DNA of 64,000 nt from an uncultured Hormoscilla sp. (GTDB lineage Bacteria; Cyanobacteriota; Cyanobacteriia; Cyanobacteriales; Desertifilaceae): NCBI GenBank assembly GCA_963921275.4, contig OZ001293.3:480001-544000 (forward strand), written 5' to 3'. Positions 20,490 through 32,017 of the stretch are shown one piece after another; the stretch's first letter is position 1; the number at the start of each line of letters is the position of its first letter. Both the position numbers and the translations under genes were made by a program. The notes below the pieces were generated by a model. The model was not told where the DNA came from. It did not search any database and saw only the letters and a program-made list of their open reading frames with translations.

Positions 20490-20564
20490 AAAGTGAGAAA
20501 GGTAAGCGAACTTCCTGAAATTAGCTTAAAATAGACATAGTTGCCTAGCAATTGCTTTACTCCT

Positions 20565-21248
20565 ATGGTTGTAAGTACCATCATCGACCTACCCCCTCTC
20601 GAAAGCGGCGATCGCCTGACAAGGGCTGAGTTCGAGCGTCGCTACACCGCATCTACAGACATTAAAAAAGCCGAACTGATTGAAGGAGTTGTATACGTGG
20701 CTTCCCCCGTCCGCGCGAGAAGACATTCCAGGCCCCACGCAATGATAATCCATTGGTTGGGAGAATATTGTGTAGCGACACCTGGCGTAGATTTACATGA
20801 TAACGCCACTGTCCACCTGGATGCCAATAACGAGCCTCAACCCGATGCCTTATTGCGCATCGAACCAGAAGTAGGGGGCAACTCTTTCATAAGTGAAGAT
20901 GACTACATTGAGGGTGCGCCAGAACTGATTGCCGAAATTGCAGCCAGCAGCGCCGCCTACGATCTGAATGACAAACTCAATGCCTATCGTCGCAATGGCG
21001 TACTTGAATATATTGTCTGGCAAACCTATGAGAACAGAGTTGATTGGTTCGCACTGCAAGCAGGCCGCTACGTCCCGATCTTGCCCGATGATAATTCCAT
21101 TATCGCTAGTCGAGTCTTCCCTGGTTTGTGGTTGTCCGTAGAGGCCCTGCGCCAAGGCGATCGCCGGAAGTTAAAGGCCGTTTTGCAGTCAGGTTTGCAA
21201 ACAGAGGCGCATCAAGAATTTGTTCGAGTACAACTGAAAGCCTTGTAG
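20565..21248 (+). CDS. Uma2 family endonuclease
   Basis: LESGDRLTRAEFERRY, AELIEGVVY, EPQPDALL, GAPELIAEIA. Confidence 0.9.
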   Translation: MVVSTIIDLPPLESGDRLTRAEFERRYTASTDIKKAELIEGVVYVASPVRARRHSRPHAMIIHWLGEYCVATPGVDLHDNATVHLDANNEPQPDALLRIEPEVGGNSFISEDDYIEGAPELIAEIAASSAAYDLNDKLNAYRRNGVLEYIVWQTYENRVDWFALQAGRYVPILPDDNSIIASRVFPGLWLSVEALRQGDRRKLKAVLQSGLQTEAHQEFVRVQLKAL

Positions 21249-26003: not shown

Positions 26004-27117
26004 ATGGTGCGATTCGTTCAGGCGTAAACTGGCGACGGTGAAGTCTGGTCTGGTTTCATTTGCCGGATAACTCTGGTTATCATGGGGGTTAAATTCCCTC
26101 TCCCCAGGTGTGGGGGGTCGAGGGTACTACCGGTCCTTAGTGCTGCGGGGTCACATCGCCGTGGTGCTCCGCTAGGGCTTAAATGTAGGATAGCTGGCAG
26201 CCTAACCCAGTGACGCCGCTAGGAAAGATGCTCATGGTTAGAACAAGCGAACCTGTTAAAGCCTCGTTACATAGAACCAGCGGAATAAGGCTTATACGCT
26301 GGCCCAAAAGGGAAAATGGTAGTTAGTGTTGGTAGTCATCTATTGCCAGCATCGCACCCAAAGAACTCCCGGGGTATAGCAGGGGCCTACAAGCATCGAG
26401 AAATGATACCAGGGAACGAAGTAACCTCACGTGAGCTGTCCCCATTTGGACCAGTTAGATGTAAAGCGCAAGCCGCGAAGAGGAAGGATGTTCTAAGAAG
26501 CCAACGCCTGGGGTAATGCCTGGGATATGCAGACGTGGGACGGATATGGTAAGAAGCCTTTGGTGAAAGTAGCCCTAACACGTCGCAAAACTTAGGAGAA
26601 ATCCAAAAGTATGAATATGGACTAGAGTCTCAGCCGGGTCAAGTTCAGAGCCCCGATAAATTGCCAGAATGGAGAAATGTTAGAGAAGAGCGGCTAGAAT
26701 GGTTTGCTGAACTACCCTCCGCGATCGCGCAGCGTGCGCGCAGCGCATACCTTCCGGAGCTGAAATCATTAACGGTCCAATAGGATTGACCATAAGGGGT
26801 AAAATTACAGAGGGTAAGGGGAATACGGGGTAACCCAATATGTCTAAGGACAAGCCCCAGCGGTGAAAGTCACAAGTCCGGTTCCGCTCTTGGAGGGTTG
26901 GGGAGTGATTCCCAGCTCGACCCCGACCACAATCAAAGAACAAATCCTTGAGAAAATTGACCAGTTGCCAGAGTCAGCATTGCTGGAGGTATTGGAATTT
27001 GTGCGTTCTCTAAAAGCTAGGCACCAACCCCAGCTGCAGCAGAGTGATGCCTGGAAAGCTTATCTGGCTTCTAAGCAGGAAAGAAAGGAGGTATACCGTC
27101 GCCTTGCTAGTTCCTAA
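26004..27117 (+). CDS. DUF2281-like antitoxin split by an intron: exon 1 is ATG only (26004-26006), exon 2 is 26929-27117 (63 aa spliced)
   Basis: Removing 26007-26928 gives MTIKEQILEKIDQLPESALLEVLEFVRSL...; overlaps the doc-like gene. Confidence 0.8.
26007..26928 (+). mobile_element. ORF-less group II intron, lineage A (922 nt)
   Basis: GTGCGATTCG start, CTCGACCCCGACC end; near-identical to 4874-5793. Confidence 0.92.
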
Positions 27118-27489
27118 GTTTATTACCTAGATGAAGTATTGGCAATTCACGCCGATCAAATTGCCAGCTTTGGGGGTACTGCGGGCATCCGCGATCGGGG
27201 TTTGCTGGAGTCGGCCTTGGCTCAACCCCAAGCTACATTTGCTGGGGAACTCCTGCACCCAACGATCTACGAGCAAGCAGCAGCCTACTTTTATCACCTG
27301 GCAATGAACCATCCCTTTATTGATGGCAACAAACGGACGGCGTTTGCGAGAATGGATGCCTTTTTGCGGATGAATGGCTATGGTCTCAATATTACCGATG
27401 ACCGGGCTTATGACCTGGTGATGCAGGTGGCCAGAGGAACTCTGAGCAAGTCGGAATTGGCCAGCTTTTTAGAGGGGGCGATCGCCTAA
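27104..27489 (+). pseudogene. Fic/Doc (death-on-curing) toxin; apparent 1-nt frameshift near 27127 after a TTG start
   Basis: HPFIDGNKRTA motif, GIRDRGLLESAL; AAGGAGG upstream of the TTG at 27104. Confidence 0.8.
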
Positions 27490-27564
27490 TTCAGGCTACA
27501 ATATAGATGGTGGTGCCCCCCGATCGCAAATCACCAGTCACCAGTTTATTTGGAGACATTCCTA

Positions 27565-28128
27565 ATGGTACAGATCGTTTCTAAACCTTTAACACTGGCA
27601 GAGTTTCTGAAGCTACCAGAAACGGAACCCGCTAGGGAGTACATTGATGAAGAGATTATCCAGAAACAAATACCGCAAGGAAAGCACAGTACAATTCAAA
27701 CAGAACTGTCCGCTACTATCAATGCAGTTCTGAAGCGTCAGCGGATAGGACGAGCTTTTTGTGAACTGCGATGTACCTTTGGCGGACGATCGATCGTTCC
27801 GGATATATCTGTGTTTGTGTGGGAAAGAATTCCTCGCGACGATCGTGGTGAAATTGCCAATGTTTTCTCCCTAGCCCCTGACTGGAATATTGAGATCCGA
27901 TCCCCCGACCAGAGTCAGACGCAAATTCTCGAAAAAATTTTGTACAGCCTGGAGTTTGAAACTCAGATGGGCTGGGCGATCGATCCTAAGGAGCAAACAT
28001 TATCAGTTTATCGTCCGCAGCAGCGTCCGGAAGTATTTGACGAATCAGCCCAGCAGCTTCCCGTGCCATTCTTTGCTAGCGATATCCAACTGACTGTGGG
28101 AGAATTATTTGGTTGGCTGTTAGCATAG
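27565..28128 (+). CDS. Uma2 family endonuclease
   Basis: LTLAEFLKLPETEPAREYI, ELRCTFGGRSIVPDI, PDWNIEI. Confidence 0.88.
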   Translation: MVQIVSKPLTLAEFLKLPETEPAREYIDEEIIQKQIPQGKHSTIQTELSATINAVLKRQRIGRAFCELRCTFGGRSIVPDISVFVWERIPRDDRGEIANVFSLAPDWNIEIRSPDQSQTQILEKILYSLEFETQMGWAIDPKEQTLSVYRPQQRPEVFDESAQQLPVPFFASDIQLTVGELFGWLLA

Positions 28129-28602
28129 ACAAATATTACTTATTTGACAATAAGTAACAAAAAAACTAACATAATTCTTCTTGCTAGCGATAGGTCAACG
28201 AAACTTACCCCAGCAATGCGACAAGCTATGGCGATCGCGGAAGTCGGGGACGAGCAAAAAGGCGAAGATCCCACGGTGAACAAACTCAACAGATCGCTGC
28301 AGACTTGGGCGCTATCTGCCAGGTGGCTAAAAATCGCTCCCAGAGAATTCATCGAAACTCGCTGGGCATTAATTTTGCGAATGTAAAACTCGATTACTGG
28401 AGGCTCTGCCTCCCTCCGGTTCGTTCCCAGCCAGAGACTGGGAACTCCCATTGGGTGGGGCTACACAAACAACGCTGGCCTGCGCGGGCTATATTACAAT
28501 GCAGGAGATGCTCCCTAAGCAACCTCAGATAAACAGCATATCCTGAACAAGTTCGCTAGGCCCGAGAATGGAGATTAAGGGCTTGCGTCACGTGACTCTA
28601 TG

Positions 28603-28764
28603 GCAAAGTCACGCAACTTTATTGCAGAGTCACGCAACTTTATTGCAGAGTCACGCAACTTTATTGCAGAGTCACGCAACTTTATTGCAGAGTCACGCAA
28701 CTTTATTGCAGAGTCACGCGACTTTATTGCAGAGTCACGCGACTTTATTGCAGAGTCACGCGAC
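28603..28764. repeat. 21-bp tandem repeat AGAGTCACGC(A/G)ACTTTATTGC, about 7.5 copies
   Basis: Directly abutting units, no spacers. Confidence 0.95.
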
Positions 28765-28877
28765 AATCGTCTCGAAGGCAGCACCGATGTCTTGCTAGTC
28801 CCATGGAAACAACTGTGATGCCTGTGGCCCTATTCATCCTCCCACTCATCCTCCCACTCATCCTCCCACGGATACTC

Positions 28878-29543
28878 TCACGGATCGCCACTGAGTTTTT
28901 GATAGGCATTACGGGCAGCGGCCTTTTCTGCATCTTGCTTCTTTTTACCGGTACCCCTTCCATAGACCTTACCTTTGACGCAGGCCACAGCCCTAAATCT
29001 ACGTGCATGATCTGGGCCCGATTCATTCACAATTCTGTAGGTTGGCGTTATGCCAAAACGGGCGAGAATTAGTTGCTGAAACTGGCTTTTCTCATCCACG
29101 ACTTGCACAGCAATTCCATCGCCATCATTGATTATTTCTTGTATCAGGGGTTCAATAAAGCTGCGTACTCTGTCCAATCCAGAATCGAGATACAATGCAC
29201 CGATATACGCCTCAAAGGCATCGCTGAGTATGGTTTCTTTATTGCGCCTGTCTTTTTTGACACTGTGACCGAGGTACAGGCGATTTCTCAAACGAAACTG
29301 ACGGGCAAAGGTAGCCAACTGGGACTTGTCCACCAGTTTTGAGCGCAGGATTGTCATATCACCTTCGTTCATATTGGGATAGGTGCGATACAGCAGATCG
29401 CCGACGATCAAGCCAAGGACAGCATCCCCGAGAAATTCCAGCCGTTCATTATCGGGACAGTCGCGATGTTCGTTGGTGTATGATGAATGGGTCAAGGCAC
29501 GCTTGCGCAAGTTGCGATCGGTAATTTCTGGCAGTTTCATCAT
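28878..29543 (-). CDS. rnc: Ribonuclease III
   Basis: ALTHSS, NERLEFLGDAVL, DAFEAYIGALYLD, C-terminal dsRBD. Confidence 0.93.
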   Translation of the reverse strand: MMKLPEITDRNLRKRALTHSSYTNEHRDCPDNERLEFLGDAVLGLIVGDLLYRTYPNMNEGDMTILRSKLVDKSQLATFARQFRLRNRLYLGHSVKKDRRNKETILSDAFEAYIGALYLDSGLDRVRSFIEPLIQEIINDGDGIAVQVVDEKSQFQQLILARFGITPTYRIVNESGPDHARRFRAVACVKGKVYGRGTGKKKQDAEKAAARNAYQKLSGDP

Positions 29544-29695
29544 GTTCAGTGCAGGGTCATCAAAAAATCTGATACTATTTTAAGACAGGATAAGAGATTA
29601 TTGAGCATTAGACATCTTGCAAAAATTTATTTTTGCTCCGCAATAGCAATTTAGCAGCAATTTTAGCATTTCTGCAAGAGGTCTATTGGTCATTC

Positions 29696-30112
29696 TCAAG
29701 GCGATCTCAACAAAGCATTGAACCCTGCTTGGGTAAAATGTTTATCGTGGGTGAGAACATCCTTAATTTTCCGCTCCTGCATAATCAGCATAGAAGCGCA
29801 GTCGGTCAGACTGTAACCCTTGTCCATCCTTTTTTGATAGAACTCAAGTGCCTGACGGAATTGTTCGGGAGTTTGTGGGACAATTTATGTAAGGCGATCG
29901 TTTCGCAGTTCTACCGTGAGTTCGACAGCTATCCGACGGAAATAAGCTCCCCTTTCACAAAAATAGTTGAGCAACTCGGTCAGAACCATCTCACTGGTGA
30001 CCGCAGTAAAGACACCTAACTCCTGCAATAATACTTTTGTACGCTGATGTAAGTTACTGCTTCGATCGCCGATGGCAATGAGATAAGAGGTATCGAGAAA
30101 AATACGCCTCAT
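29696..30112 (-). pseudogene. PIN-domain (VapC) toxin with in-frame TAA at 29885-29887
   Basis: IFLDTSYLIA, VLTELLN; past the stop: DKGYSLTDCASM...VLTHDKHFTQAGF. Confidence 0.88.
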
Positions 30113-30789
30113 TCTTCTTTTGGTGCTCCATACATATAATGTTCAAAATTGCGAGCCAAATCCCTCGGGAGTTTAGCCCATTCTTCGTCGGGAACCCGCG
30201 CACCTATTTCCATGAGTCGTTTCCAGAGAGGTTTCTCTTCGGGCTCAAGGGAAATTATCTTACCGTTGTCAGTCTCATCAATCAGCAGGTGCTTCTCTTT
30301 CCGTGCGCTCAGGATCTCCAAGCTGGCGTCAATGTAGGCGTTAACAAGTTTAGCCGCCCAGGTCGGCAAACCCCGATCGCCTTGAAGATAATTGAGGGCC
30401 GCGATCGCCCCATCAATCGGCAAATCAAAAAAACTATAGTCGATCGCCTGCCAACTCCCGGTCGAATTCGGCTGGATACTCGTCGCCTGAGCAACTAAAC
30501 GGTATTGTAGCTGGCGCAGATAAAAGGCCACCTCACGCAGGTACTTTTCCTTGGCGTCCGGTCTACAAGCATCCTCGGGCAAAATAGATGAGGCCGCTTG
30601 CACTGCACCCTCCATCAAATTTGGGGCATTTTCAGCCAAATACTTAGCCCCAGCAAAGTAAGCCGCTGCCCGTTCCAGCCTTTGGGCAACCAGTTCCAGT
30701 TCCCGATCGTCCAGAAAACGACCTTGACCGGTAGCATCGACGATCGCTTCTCTGATTGTAGTTTCCATAGCACTTTTCCAATTCACCAT
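30109..30789 (-). CDS. Phycocyanin alpha-like (globin fold) domain fused to a VapB-type antitoxin tail
   Basis: N-terminal 160 aa colinear with CpcA (QGRFL, K-Y-LRE...YLR...Y.LVA, FDL, ALNY, NAYID); tail PDEEWAKLPRDLARNFEHYMYG; ATGA overlap with the PIN gene. Confidence 0.82.
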   Translation of the reverse strand: MVNWKSAMETTIREAIVDATGQGRFLDDRELELVAQRLERAAAYFAGAKYLAENAPNLMEGAVQAASSILPEDACRPDAKEKYLREVAFYLRQLQYRLVAQATSIQPNSTGSWQAIDYSFFDLPIDGAIAALNYLQGDRGLPTWAAKLVNAYIDASLEILSARKEKHLLIDETDNGKIISLEPEEKPLWKRLMEIGARVPDEEWAKLPRDLARNFEHYMYGAPKEE

Positions 30790-30828: not shown

Positions 30829-30979
30829 ATGGACGTAAAAGCAGCAGTTGATTGGTACATGGAAGGTAAAATTAACATCGATGACTTGATTACCCACGTC
30901 ATGCCGATCGACCAAATTAATGACGCCTTTGAATTAATTGCACAAAGGCGAGTCTATCCGCACCGTTTTAACATTTTAA
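30829..30979 (+). pseudogene. frmA: S-(hydroxymethyl)glutathione dehydrogenase remnant (internal deletion of most of the gene)
   Basis: N-terminal MDVKAAV joined to C-terminal DWYMEGKINIDDLITH...ESIRTVLTF; lies upstream of fghA. Confidence 0.8.
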
Positions 30980-31172
30980 CAGCACAAAGGTTCGTTGTTG
31001 TACTTCAGCGCCAAGGTTCCCAATTCCTATGTTTAGCCCCTGCGCAGCGGAGGGGGCCCGGAGCGTGGGCTTTGTCCCTGTAGCCGCACCCCTCGTTCCC
31101 ACGGCTCTGCCTGGGAACGGGTGACGGAGATCGCGAATAATTTACAGCCCTGTTATTCCCCATTAGCAAATT

Positions 31173-32017
31173 ATGTCTACATCAGTCAACATTATTTCCG
31201 AACATGCCTGTTTCGGCGGCCAAGTCAGTTTTCACAGCCATCATTCGGAGACCTGTAACTGCGAAATGCACTTTGCAGTTTATCAACCACCCCAAGCAAA
31301 ATCAAAACCAGTGCCAGTCCTCTATTTTCTCTCTGGTTTAACCTCTACAGAAGAGAACTTTATCATGAAAGCCGGGGCGCAGCGGTACGCCGCAGAACAG
31401 GGGTTAATGTTAGTTATGCCAGATACCAGTCCGCGGGATACTGGCATACAGGGTGAAAACGACGAGTGGGATCTCGGTACGGGTGCAGGCTTCTACGTTG
31501 ATGCGACAATGGCACCCTGGGCGTCCCACTATCAAATGTACAGCTATGTGGTCCGCGAATTACCTGCAATCATAGCCGAAAACTTTCCAGCGATACCGGA
31601 AAAACAGGAAATTTGCGGTCATTCTATGGGCGGACATGGGGCCTTAGTCTGTGCCTTGAGAACCCAGAACAATATCAGTCACTTTCCGCTTTCGCCCCGA
31701 TCGCGGCACCGATGCGCAGTGATTTGGGACAGAAGGTATTTACCAATTACCTGGGTACCAAGCAGGAAACCTGGCGGGTTTACGATGCCAGCGAATTAAT
31801 CCTTACGGCTAAATATAGTCGTCCCATTCTGATCGATCAAGGAACGGCGGATGAATATCTCCCCCAACTGCTACCAGAAGTATTTTCCGAAGCTTGTCAA
31901 AAGGTCGGTCAACCCCTAACCTTACGCATGCAAGCAGGTTACGACCACGGCTACTACTTTGTCTCCACCTTCGTCGCAGACCACATCCGCCACCATGCTG
32001 CTGTCTTGTGCGAGTAA
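31173..32017 (+). pseudogene. fghA: S-formylglutathione hydrolase, frameshifted near 31660
   Basis: LSGLT, PDTSPR, GAGFYVDA, GHSMGGHGAL, GYDHGYYF. Confidence 0.9.

Follow-up and report, generated by a model that had tools for sequence, protein, structure and literature searches.

A phycocyanin-alpha-derived head on a putative antitoxin gene beside a disarmed PIN toxin gene in Hormoscilla

Introduction

In a 64,000-nucleotide (nt) stretch of the genome of an uncultured Hormoscilla sp. (assembly GCA_963921275.4, contig OZ001293.3, positions 480,001 to 544,000 of the forward strand; hereafter, the window), a gene whose product resembles the alpha subunit of phycocyanin (CpcA) runs directly into a gene for a PIN-domain toxin. 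This arrangement raises the question of what a phycobiliprotein domain is doing in the place of an antitoxin. The initial annotation read the first protein as a chromophore-less phycocyanin-alpha domain fused to an antitoxin and coupled to a PIN toxin, and proposed that the domain is an integrated decoy or degron through which signals for phycobilisome degradation would destroy the antitoxin and release the toxin. The structural part of that interpretation, a chromophore-less CpcA-derived domain on an antitoxin-type tail that is coupled to a disarmed PIN gene, stands, whereas the decoy or degron part is supported by no test. We favor, and consider reasonably probable, an explanation in terms of a VapBC-like type II toxin-antitoxin module: the dimerizing head would be a pigment-less paralogue of CpcA, the tail would block the PIN toxin, and the toxin has been disarmed in this genome.

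Results

Organization of the fusion gene and its PIN partner

The module comprises the following features, all on the minus strand, with residues counted from the first ATG of the fusion gene unless stated otherwise.

30109..30789 (-), fusion antitoxin gene, 226 amino acids (aa) counted from the first ATG
30274..30768 (-), phycocyanin-alpha-derived, globin-like head, residues 8-172, assigned from PF00502, TIGR01338, AlphaFold2 (AF2), Foldseek and comparison with CpcA columns
30235..30273 (-), linker, residues 173-185, predicted to be disordered (predicted local distance difference test, pLDDT, <50 at model residues 165-178)
30112..30234 (-), conserved C-terminal tail (KPLW...NFEHYMYGAPKEE), presumed from gene linkage to be the PIN-binding antitoxin module
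30541..30543 (-), TAC (Tyr) at the column of the bilin-binding Cys84 of CpcA
29696..30112 (-), PIN (VapC-like) toxin pseudogene, 138 codons, assigned from PF01850 and intact orthologues
29885-29887 (-), in-frame TAA at PIN codon 76, a Glu codon in intact congeners

The stop codon of the fusion gene (TGA, 30109-30111) overlaps the ATG of the PIN gene (30110-30112) to form ATGA at 30109-30112, just as initially described. Translation of the fusion gene probably starts at the ATG at 30768 (M8, METT...), which gives a protein of 219 aa; this start is favored because the version predicted by gene callers (P0001) is 219 aa long and distant relatives all begin ME...

Origin of the head

In a Pfam scan of the fusion protein the sole domain matched was PF00502, with an E value of 1.7e-12 (48 bits, compared with a cut-off of 22.2) over residues 15-156 and profile positions 2-151 of 155. 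The best NCBIfam model for the head is phycocyanin alpha, TIGR01338 (7e-19, 68.4 bits), with CpeA and ApcB ranking lower; the score falls well under the equivalog cut-off of 269.45 bits, indicating that the protein is not CpcA proper. An AF2 model based on an alignment of 11 relatives is all-helical with a mean pLDDT of 74.9, and has three short helices in the tail and a disordered segment at residues 165-178. When the model was compared with the PDB by Foldseek, C-phycocyanin chains 160-163 residues long ranked first (29-36% identity, E ~1e-6, probability 1.00, TM(target) ~0.6), so that the colinearity with phycocyanin alpha first noted for the 226-aa open reading frame (ORF) is borne out by both the Pfam match and the fold. 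Compared with CpcA of relatives, the head is 32-40% identical and collinear over ~155 residues. The alpha-type fusions are located near CpcA in a phylogenetic tree with weak support (69/85); we therefore base the CpcA origin of the head on the ranking of hidden Markov models (HMMs) and folds.

Comparison of alignment columns with 28 CpcA sequences shows which features have been kept. The hydrophobic core and the N-terminal X-Y hairpin are retained (A8, I9, A12, Q15, R17, F18, E23 and L24), whereas loop 65-72 of CpcA is wholly deleted. The predicted Tyr at the Cys84 position is indeed encoded (TAC at 30541-30543), D87 is replaced by Glu, W128 by Gly and Y129 by Ala, and most of the residues that we take to line the bilin-contact pocket of CpcA are changed. 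In the fusions as a group, many surface residues that are invariant in CpcA are altered. Cys84 is kept in 27% of a set of 15 "alpha-type" fusions that includes one beta-type row (L084), and the bilin Cys is retained in the fusions P0013 and P0015. Asp13, which is invariant in the 28 CpcA sequences and presumably contributes to a salt bridge between the alpha and beta subunits, is kept in 0 of the 15. The head is a diverged, pigment-less phycocyanin-alpha domain. Its isoelectric point is 4.9, within a range of 4.5-5.2 across fusion heads, and because the head is acidic, binding to operator DNA is not expected and we regard it as unlikely.

There are 16 PF00502 matches in the genome, and the only one located in the window is the fusion gene itself, in agreement with the earlier observation that no beta subunit gene is nearby; the initial annotation also saw no lyase gene nearby, a negative behind which there is no search aimed at lyase genes in the window. 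The fusion gene is outside any cpc operon, the true cpcBA genes being located at G000:C1:3.39 Mb. Two further PF00502 paralogues (L012 and L015; G000:C1:4181384-4181794 and 711561-711929; 168 and 153 aa) are very diverged, lack the Cys and group together on a long branch. Elsewhere in the genome, an ApcA-like protein of 233 aa (G000:C1:4859705-4860166; L007 1399-2100) ends in 30 residues that match the start of CpeS (E 3e-4), which could reflect either read-through or fusion to a lyase gene; a homologue lies upstream in locus L135, described below.

A widespread tail beside PIN genes

We searched for relatives of the tail among 1.84 billion representative proteins at E <= 0.001. A total of 693 proteins matched. 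Most share residues ~176-226 only, placed at the C-terminal end of proteins 44-313 aa long, and two to four copies are present in some tail-bearing proteins. On its own the tail has no match in Pfam (best E 0.059, to an unrelated glycosidase) or in NCBIfam, and a PDB sequence search returned 0 matches at E up to 10. In other cyanobacteria a PIN-like ORF follows the tail-bearing ORF at 9 of 10 loci, usually with a 4-nt overlap. Among species-representative genomes (58 loci), a PIN of the same subfamily, as defined by a purpose-built HMM from 8 seeds, is directly downstream of 43 of 61 tail ORFs; the true number is higher, since the distance rule overlooked at least the PIN of L096. Of these 43 PINs, 33 are full length (>=130 aa) and 10 are fragments. 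These counts support the original description of the tail as typical of small antitoxins upstream of PIN genes, and on the basis of the gene linkage the tail presumably binds and blocks the PIN protein.

Other heads joined to the same tail include DUF2281-like and HicB-like domains, an HsdS-like domain and an uncharacterized domain of ~300 aa, and the tail is found outside cyanobacteria as well. A further PIN of this subfamily, likewise paired with a tail-bearing antitoxin (L018), is present in the genome itself. An HsdS-like specificity subunit (type I restriction-modification) of 554 aa bears the tail in Microcystis, Spirulina and Pseudanabaena. In Microcystis locus L116 (977-3063), the 554-aa Methylase_S protein (PADLOC mad5/Specificity_I) ends in the tail and is directly followed by a PIN of 137-140 aa, an architecture that recurs in L114, L117-L119 and L125. 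Proteins of ~300 aa from non-cyanobacterial metagenome-assembled genomes (MAGs; L095, L104, P0068, P0096 and P0111) share an N-terminal domain that has no Pfam match, in addition to the tail, and that of L095 is followed by a PIN. Finally, tail proteins of 89-104 aa (L085, L087; P0018, P0025) resemble internally deleted alpha-type fusions; only a 47-aa PIN fragment is located downstream of L085 and no PIN downstream of L087, indicating modules in decay.

Decay of the PIN gene

Read with an X at the stop codon, the PIN frame matches PF01850 at E 1.9e-10 over residues 4-131. Intact orthologues of 138 aa are present in the congeners G004 and G002, and the nearest solved relative of the intact PIN is VapC20 (E 6.9e-6). 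The TAA codon is also found in contigs of two runs from one study: X4, from another sample, covers 29600-30217 with 0 differing letters, and X2 is identical as well but may itself be the source of the window DNA. Across five Hormoscilla genomes the PIN gene is intact in two and broken in three, and each break is different: the TAA at codon 76 here, a frameshift near codon 55 in G003 and a stop at codon 107 in G001. Beyond these genomes, the PIN of G275 is 95 aa in length owing to an internal in-frame deletion, and there is no PIN beside the fusion of Microseira (L081). Fusions beside an intact PIN, which the initial annotation had suggested looking for, are found at L077, L079, L082, L083, L084 and L135. 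Judged by its sequence, the PIN gene of the window is killed by the nonsense codon at 29885, consistent with the earlier view that this copy is disarmed, and the intact fusion gene is the orphan remnant of a disarmed module.

Recurrence, duplication and selection

Among 41 related genomes, all 5 from Hormoscilla have a full-length fusion and none of the remaining 36 does; at least five other filamentous cyanobacteria also carry one. When a profile of 11 fusions was compared with 401 genomes sampled from across the phylum, full-length matches were found in two, the genome studied here and G275, with ordinary CpcA matching at positions 1-~155 only (E 1e-36 to 1e-49). The species-representative scan, in which full-length fusions account for 8 of the 58 tail loci, added Microseira, a Coleofasciculaceae MAG, UBA11372 and a Leptolyngbyaceae MAG. 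Pairwise dN/dS values among orthologues, which are derived from few substitutions, range from 0.21 to 0.59 in the head and from 0 to 0.28 in the tail. The concern raised at the outset, that the fusion might be unique to this genome and free of purifying selection, is countered by its presence in several genera and by the dN/dS of the head.

In two congeners the fusion is arranged as tandem copies, A and B, that are ~75% identical. The 94-nt spacer after copy A in G004 (L077 3161-3254) contains the opening 56 nt of a PIN gene, at 87.5% identity, and after them a repeat of the TATAAT-like upstream 'TATAATAGA' region. The presence of both a PIN remnant and the upstream repeat indicates that the whole module was duplicated and that the first toxin was then deleted.

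Given that the fusion is intact in all five congeners while PIN is broken in three, the antitoxin might be kept as an orphan after loss of its toxin, either to cross-neutralize paralogous PINs or to protect against incoming copies of the module (anti-addiction). Copy A of G004 is likewise intact although only the 56-nt PIN remnant follows it, dN/dS is below 1, and the genome's other subfamily PIN, with its own tail-bearing antitoxin, would offer a potential target. However, the toxin is expected to decay first under neutrality, because a cell that lost its antitoxin beforehand would die; the copies have diverged little, such that intact frames may just be young; and the conserved tail Trp is missing from copy A of G003. 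We therefore regard a retained orphan function as very doubtful.

Beta-type heads and a third group

Five more tail-bearing proteins match PF00502 (P0021, P0026, P0030, P0047 and P0063). A tree that also included the phycobiliproteins of this genome groups them together (99/99) within the CpcB/CpeB branch (100/98). A PIN is located downstream of each beta-type fusion at loci L084, L135 and L136, that of L136 running off the contig. In a tree of 34 PINs, those of alpha-type and beta-type fusions fall into one clade of 9 (Shimodaira-Hasegawa-like approximate likelihood ratio test, 94), which also includes two PINs that are paired with small antitoxins. Therefore, one tail/PIN lineage carries a rod phycobiliprotein head of either the alpha or the beta type. 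Five other fusion-bearing genomes were checked and each has a single fusion tail, leaving no alpha and beta pair there. A beta-type profile matched none of the 401 genomes at E up to 1e-58, an empty answer that is uninformative as it came without a positive control.

On metagenome contig L135 (562-3528), the beta-type fusion keeps the bilin Cys motif ATCLRD and its PIN is intact. The fusion comes directly after genes for a HEAT-repeat lyase-like protein and a CpeS-like protein, and genes for an ApcA-like and a second CpeS-like protein are nearby. A third group, the alpha-type proteins P0019, P0154 and P0054, has a different C-terminal module. In G390 (L204 1117-2603) the protein of this kind is 342 aa long, with internal repeats and a weak resemblance of its C-terminal module to DUF5678, and the gene for a retropepsin-like aspartyl protease (PF13650, E 5e-13) lies 5 nt past it. 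The C-terminal pieces of P0019, P0054 and P0145 gave only a sub-threshold match to DUF5678 in Pfam (E 0.009). Taken together, the sequences suggest several recruitments of phycobiliprotein heads rather than one.

The occurrence of alpha- and beta-type rod heads within one tail/PIN clade speaks for the decoy or degron proposal, in which NblA, produced by the host during starvation or encoded by a phage, would deliver the antitoxin to ClpC-ClpP and so free the PIN ribonuclease, leading to dormancy or abortive infection. Antitoxins must be labile, phycobiliproteins are conditional Clp substrates via NblA, and viral NblA has been treated in published papers. Two nblA genes of the genome score above the Pfam cut-off, and some fusions keep the bilin Cys and adjoin lyase genes. 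Moreover, apo-CpcA is reported to join CpcB in the phycobilisomes of a cpcF mutant (PMC4143364). On the other hand, the alpha-type fusions have lost both the bilin pocket and loop 65-72. In a docking study, NblA was modeled in a groove of assembled (alpha-beta)6 phycocyanin, and cross-linking of NblA to the N-terminus of the beta subunit is cited there (PMC11477984); both the hexamer groove and the beta N-terminus may be absent from a loop-deleted, alpha-like homodimer. In addition, the same tail carries heads unrelated to phycobilisomes, no PADLOC defense model matches the fusion or the PIN, and no relative was found in the viral contigs searched. Overall, NblA-driven release looks unlikely.

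Predicted dimer of the head

In order to model the head as a homodimer, two copies (residues 1-168 of the 219-aa form) were run three times, alongside three controls. The models scored 0.69, 0.69 and 0.72 compared with 0.01 for the best control, a pass that may reflect memory of solved alpha/beta complexes. The runs share >=85% of contacts and the pLDDT of the partner is >=81; for calibration, 20 of 30 proteins whose solved structures are one-chain pairs reached the dimer mark, as did 1 of 23 with single-chain structures. The symmetric interface of the models consists of residues 5-48 and 82-98, placing the X-Y hairpin against helices A and E, which is the surface used by phycobiliproteins to form the alpha/beta monomer. 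Interface residues are more conserved than the rest of the head (0.61 vs 0.47 across 11 fusions; Mann-Whitney p 0.003). The modeling suggests that the classical alpha/beta-monomer interface has been retained; the partner could be either the head itself or CpcB.

If the partner were CpcB, the head could take the place of CpcA in rods or free alpha/beta monomers, and the antitoxin with its bound PIN would be tethered to, or stabilized by, the antenna, to be set free as the rods are taken apart. The predicted interface is compatible with such docking, and in the cpcF mutant, chromophore-less apo-CpcA reportedly assembles with holo-CpcB into phycobilisomes (PMC4143364). The bilin Cys is also kept in P0013, P0015 and the beta-type fusion of L135, the last beside CpeS-like and HEAT lyase-like genes. 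Nevertheless, no fusion retains Asp13, many of the surface residues that are invariant in CpcA differ and the fusion gene is not part of the cpc operon, and we think docking quite unlikely.

The favored explanation

Our preferred explanation remains the VapBC-like module. The C-terminal tail of ~41 residues accompanies one subfamily of PIN ribonucleases, which it presumably binds and blocks, and a pigment-less phycocyanin-alpha paralogue would have replaced the usual N-terminal DNA-binding and dimerizing domain. The head would form a homodimer via the X-Y hairpin and the helix A/E surface, and could thereby present two tails to a PIN dimer. In this genome, the nonsense codon in the toxin gene would leave the intact antitoxin gene as an orphan.

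Several observations weigh against this explanation. For a mere dimerizer, it is odd that both alpha-type and beta-type rod heads occur in one tail/PIN lineage and that a third, alpha-type set is joined to another partner module; together, these indicate something specific to phycobiliproteins. The loss in every fusion of Asp13, invariant in CpcA, does not favor it either, and the dimer result, being open to model memory of alpha/beta complexes, attests to a kept interface rather than to self-pairing over pairing with CpcB. A scan for promoters and terminators gave counts at the level of chance (3 promoter-like sites vs 2.6 expected) and no operator stood out. With regard to expression, contigs 85-95% alike in one metatranscriptome library cover parts of both genes and the joint of the tandem copies; this library may hold DNA too, and contigs of a relative are no proof of transcription.

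These points leave room for a broader alternative in which NblA-driven release and docking to CpcB or rods together form a switch that reads antenna turnover. Rod phycobiliprotein domains would have been built repeatedly into PIN-module antitoxins, and into the partner of a retropepsin-like protease gene; the stability or location of the antitoxin would follow the phycobilisome; and dismantling of the antenna by NblA-Clp, upon starvation or through phage NblA, would free the ribonuclease. We think this alternative rather unlikely. If true, a toxin-antitoxin switch would be wired to the turnover of the light-harvesting apparatus.

Neighboring genes

The module is flanked by core genes, with rnc (28878-29543) on one side and a decaying adhC/esterase pair (30829-32017) on the other, and a Doc-type module and Uma2 genes are near it. 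Of the adhC part, a class III alcohol dehydrogenase-like gene, only 84 aa remain (30829-31083, +), a large internal stretch having been deleted; G004 holds a whole adhC-like gene of 369 aa (L021 352-1461), and contigs of a relative have ~960 extra letters here. The adjacent esterase gene (PF00756; 31173-32017, +) is split into two overlapping frames that match profile positions 1-139 and 130-250, and resembles a frameshifted pseudogene. On the other side, a second toxin-antitoxin-like pair (26863-27489, +) consists of an ORF of 84 aa, which matches DUF2281 below the threshold, and, after it, a gene for a Fic/Doc protein of 116 aa (PF02661, E 2.6e-19). Two genes for putative endonucleases of the Uma2 family (PF05685) are located within 8 kb (20541-21248 and 27550-28128, +). 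The spacer beyond rnc (28568-28800) contains a 21-nt tandem repeat encoding a 7-residue unit (HATLLQS...) ~8 times, which can be read in all three forward frames and one reverse frame; a related stretch is found in a congener (L024 1-297).

Discussion

Phycobiliproteins are known as light-harvesting subunits, and a pigment-less paralogue as the head of an antitoxin would be a new use of the fold. Modular type II toxin-antitoxin systems are already known; what is new is the phycobiliprotein head. Full-text literature searches, whose coverage excludes subscription papers, returned no description of a phycobiliprotein-antitoxin fusion. What triggers chromosomal toxin-antitoxin modules is a long-standing question, and the presence of alpha- and beta-type heads in one PIN lineage provides a testable system in which phycobilisome degradation is an obvious candidate signal. 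Furthermore, the widespread and unannotated PIN-linked tail offers a way of finding antitoxins whose heads are out of the ordinary, such as the HsdS-like proteins of Microcystis.

The module can be compared with several known systems. It resembles VapBC in that the PIN gene is directly downstream with an ATGA overlap, in that the C-terminal part of the antitoxin travels with a PIN subfamily, and in that VapC20 is the nearest solved toxin. Unlike VapBC, its head is not a ribbon-helix-helix, AbrB, helix-turn-helix or Phd DNA-binding fold, but an acidic phycobiliprotein domain; its tail has no match in Pfam, NCBIfam or the PDB, and its toxin is broken. With CpcA the head shares its fold, collinearity over ~155 residues, the X-Y hairpin and core residues, whereas it differs in the absence of Cys84 and loop 65-72, in the 55 additional residues of linker and tail, and in its location outside the cpc operon. 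The closest parallels in architecture are the modular antitoxins with DUF2281-like, HicB-like or HsdS-like heads, which have the same tail, PIN subfamily and gene order, but in which the head is not, as it is here, a light-harvesting paralogue, of the alpha type in the window and of the beta type in sister loci. A more distant analogy is offered by integrated-decoy sensors, such as plant nucleotide-binding leucine-rich repeat receptors with integrated domains (NLR-ID) and the fused toxin-antitoxin CapRel, in which a copy of a host protein targeted by pathogens or stress pathways is built into a switch for death or dormancy.

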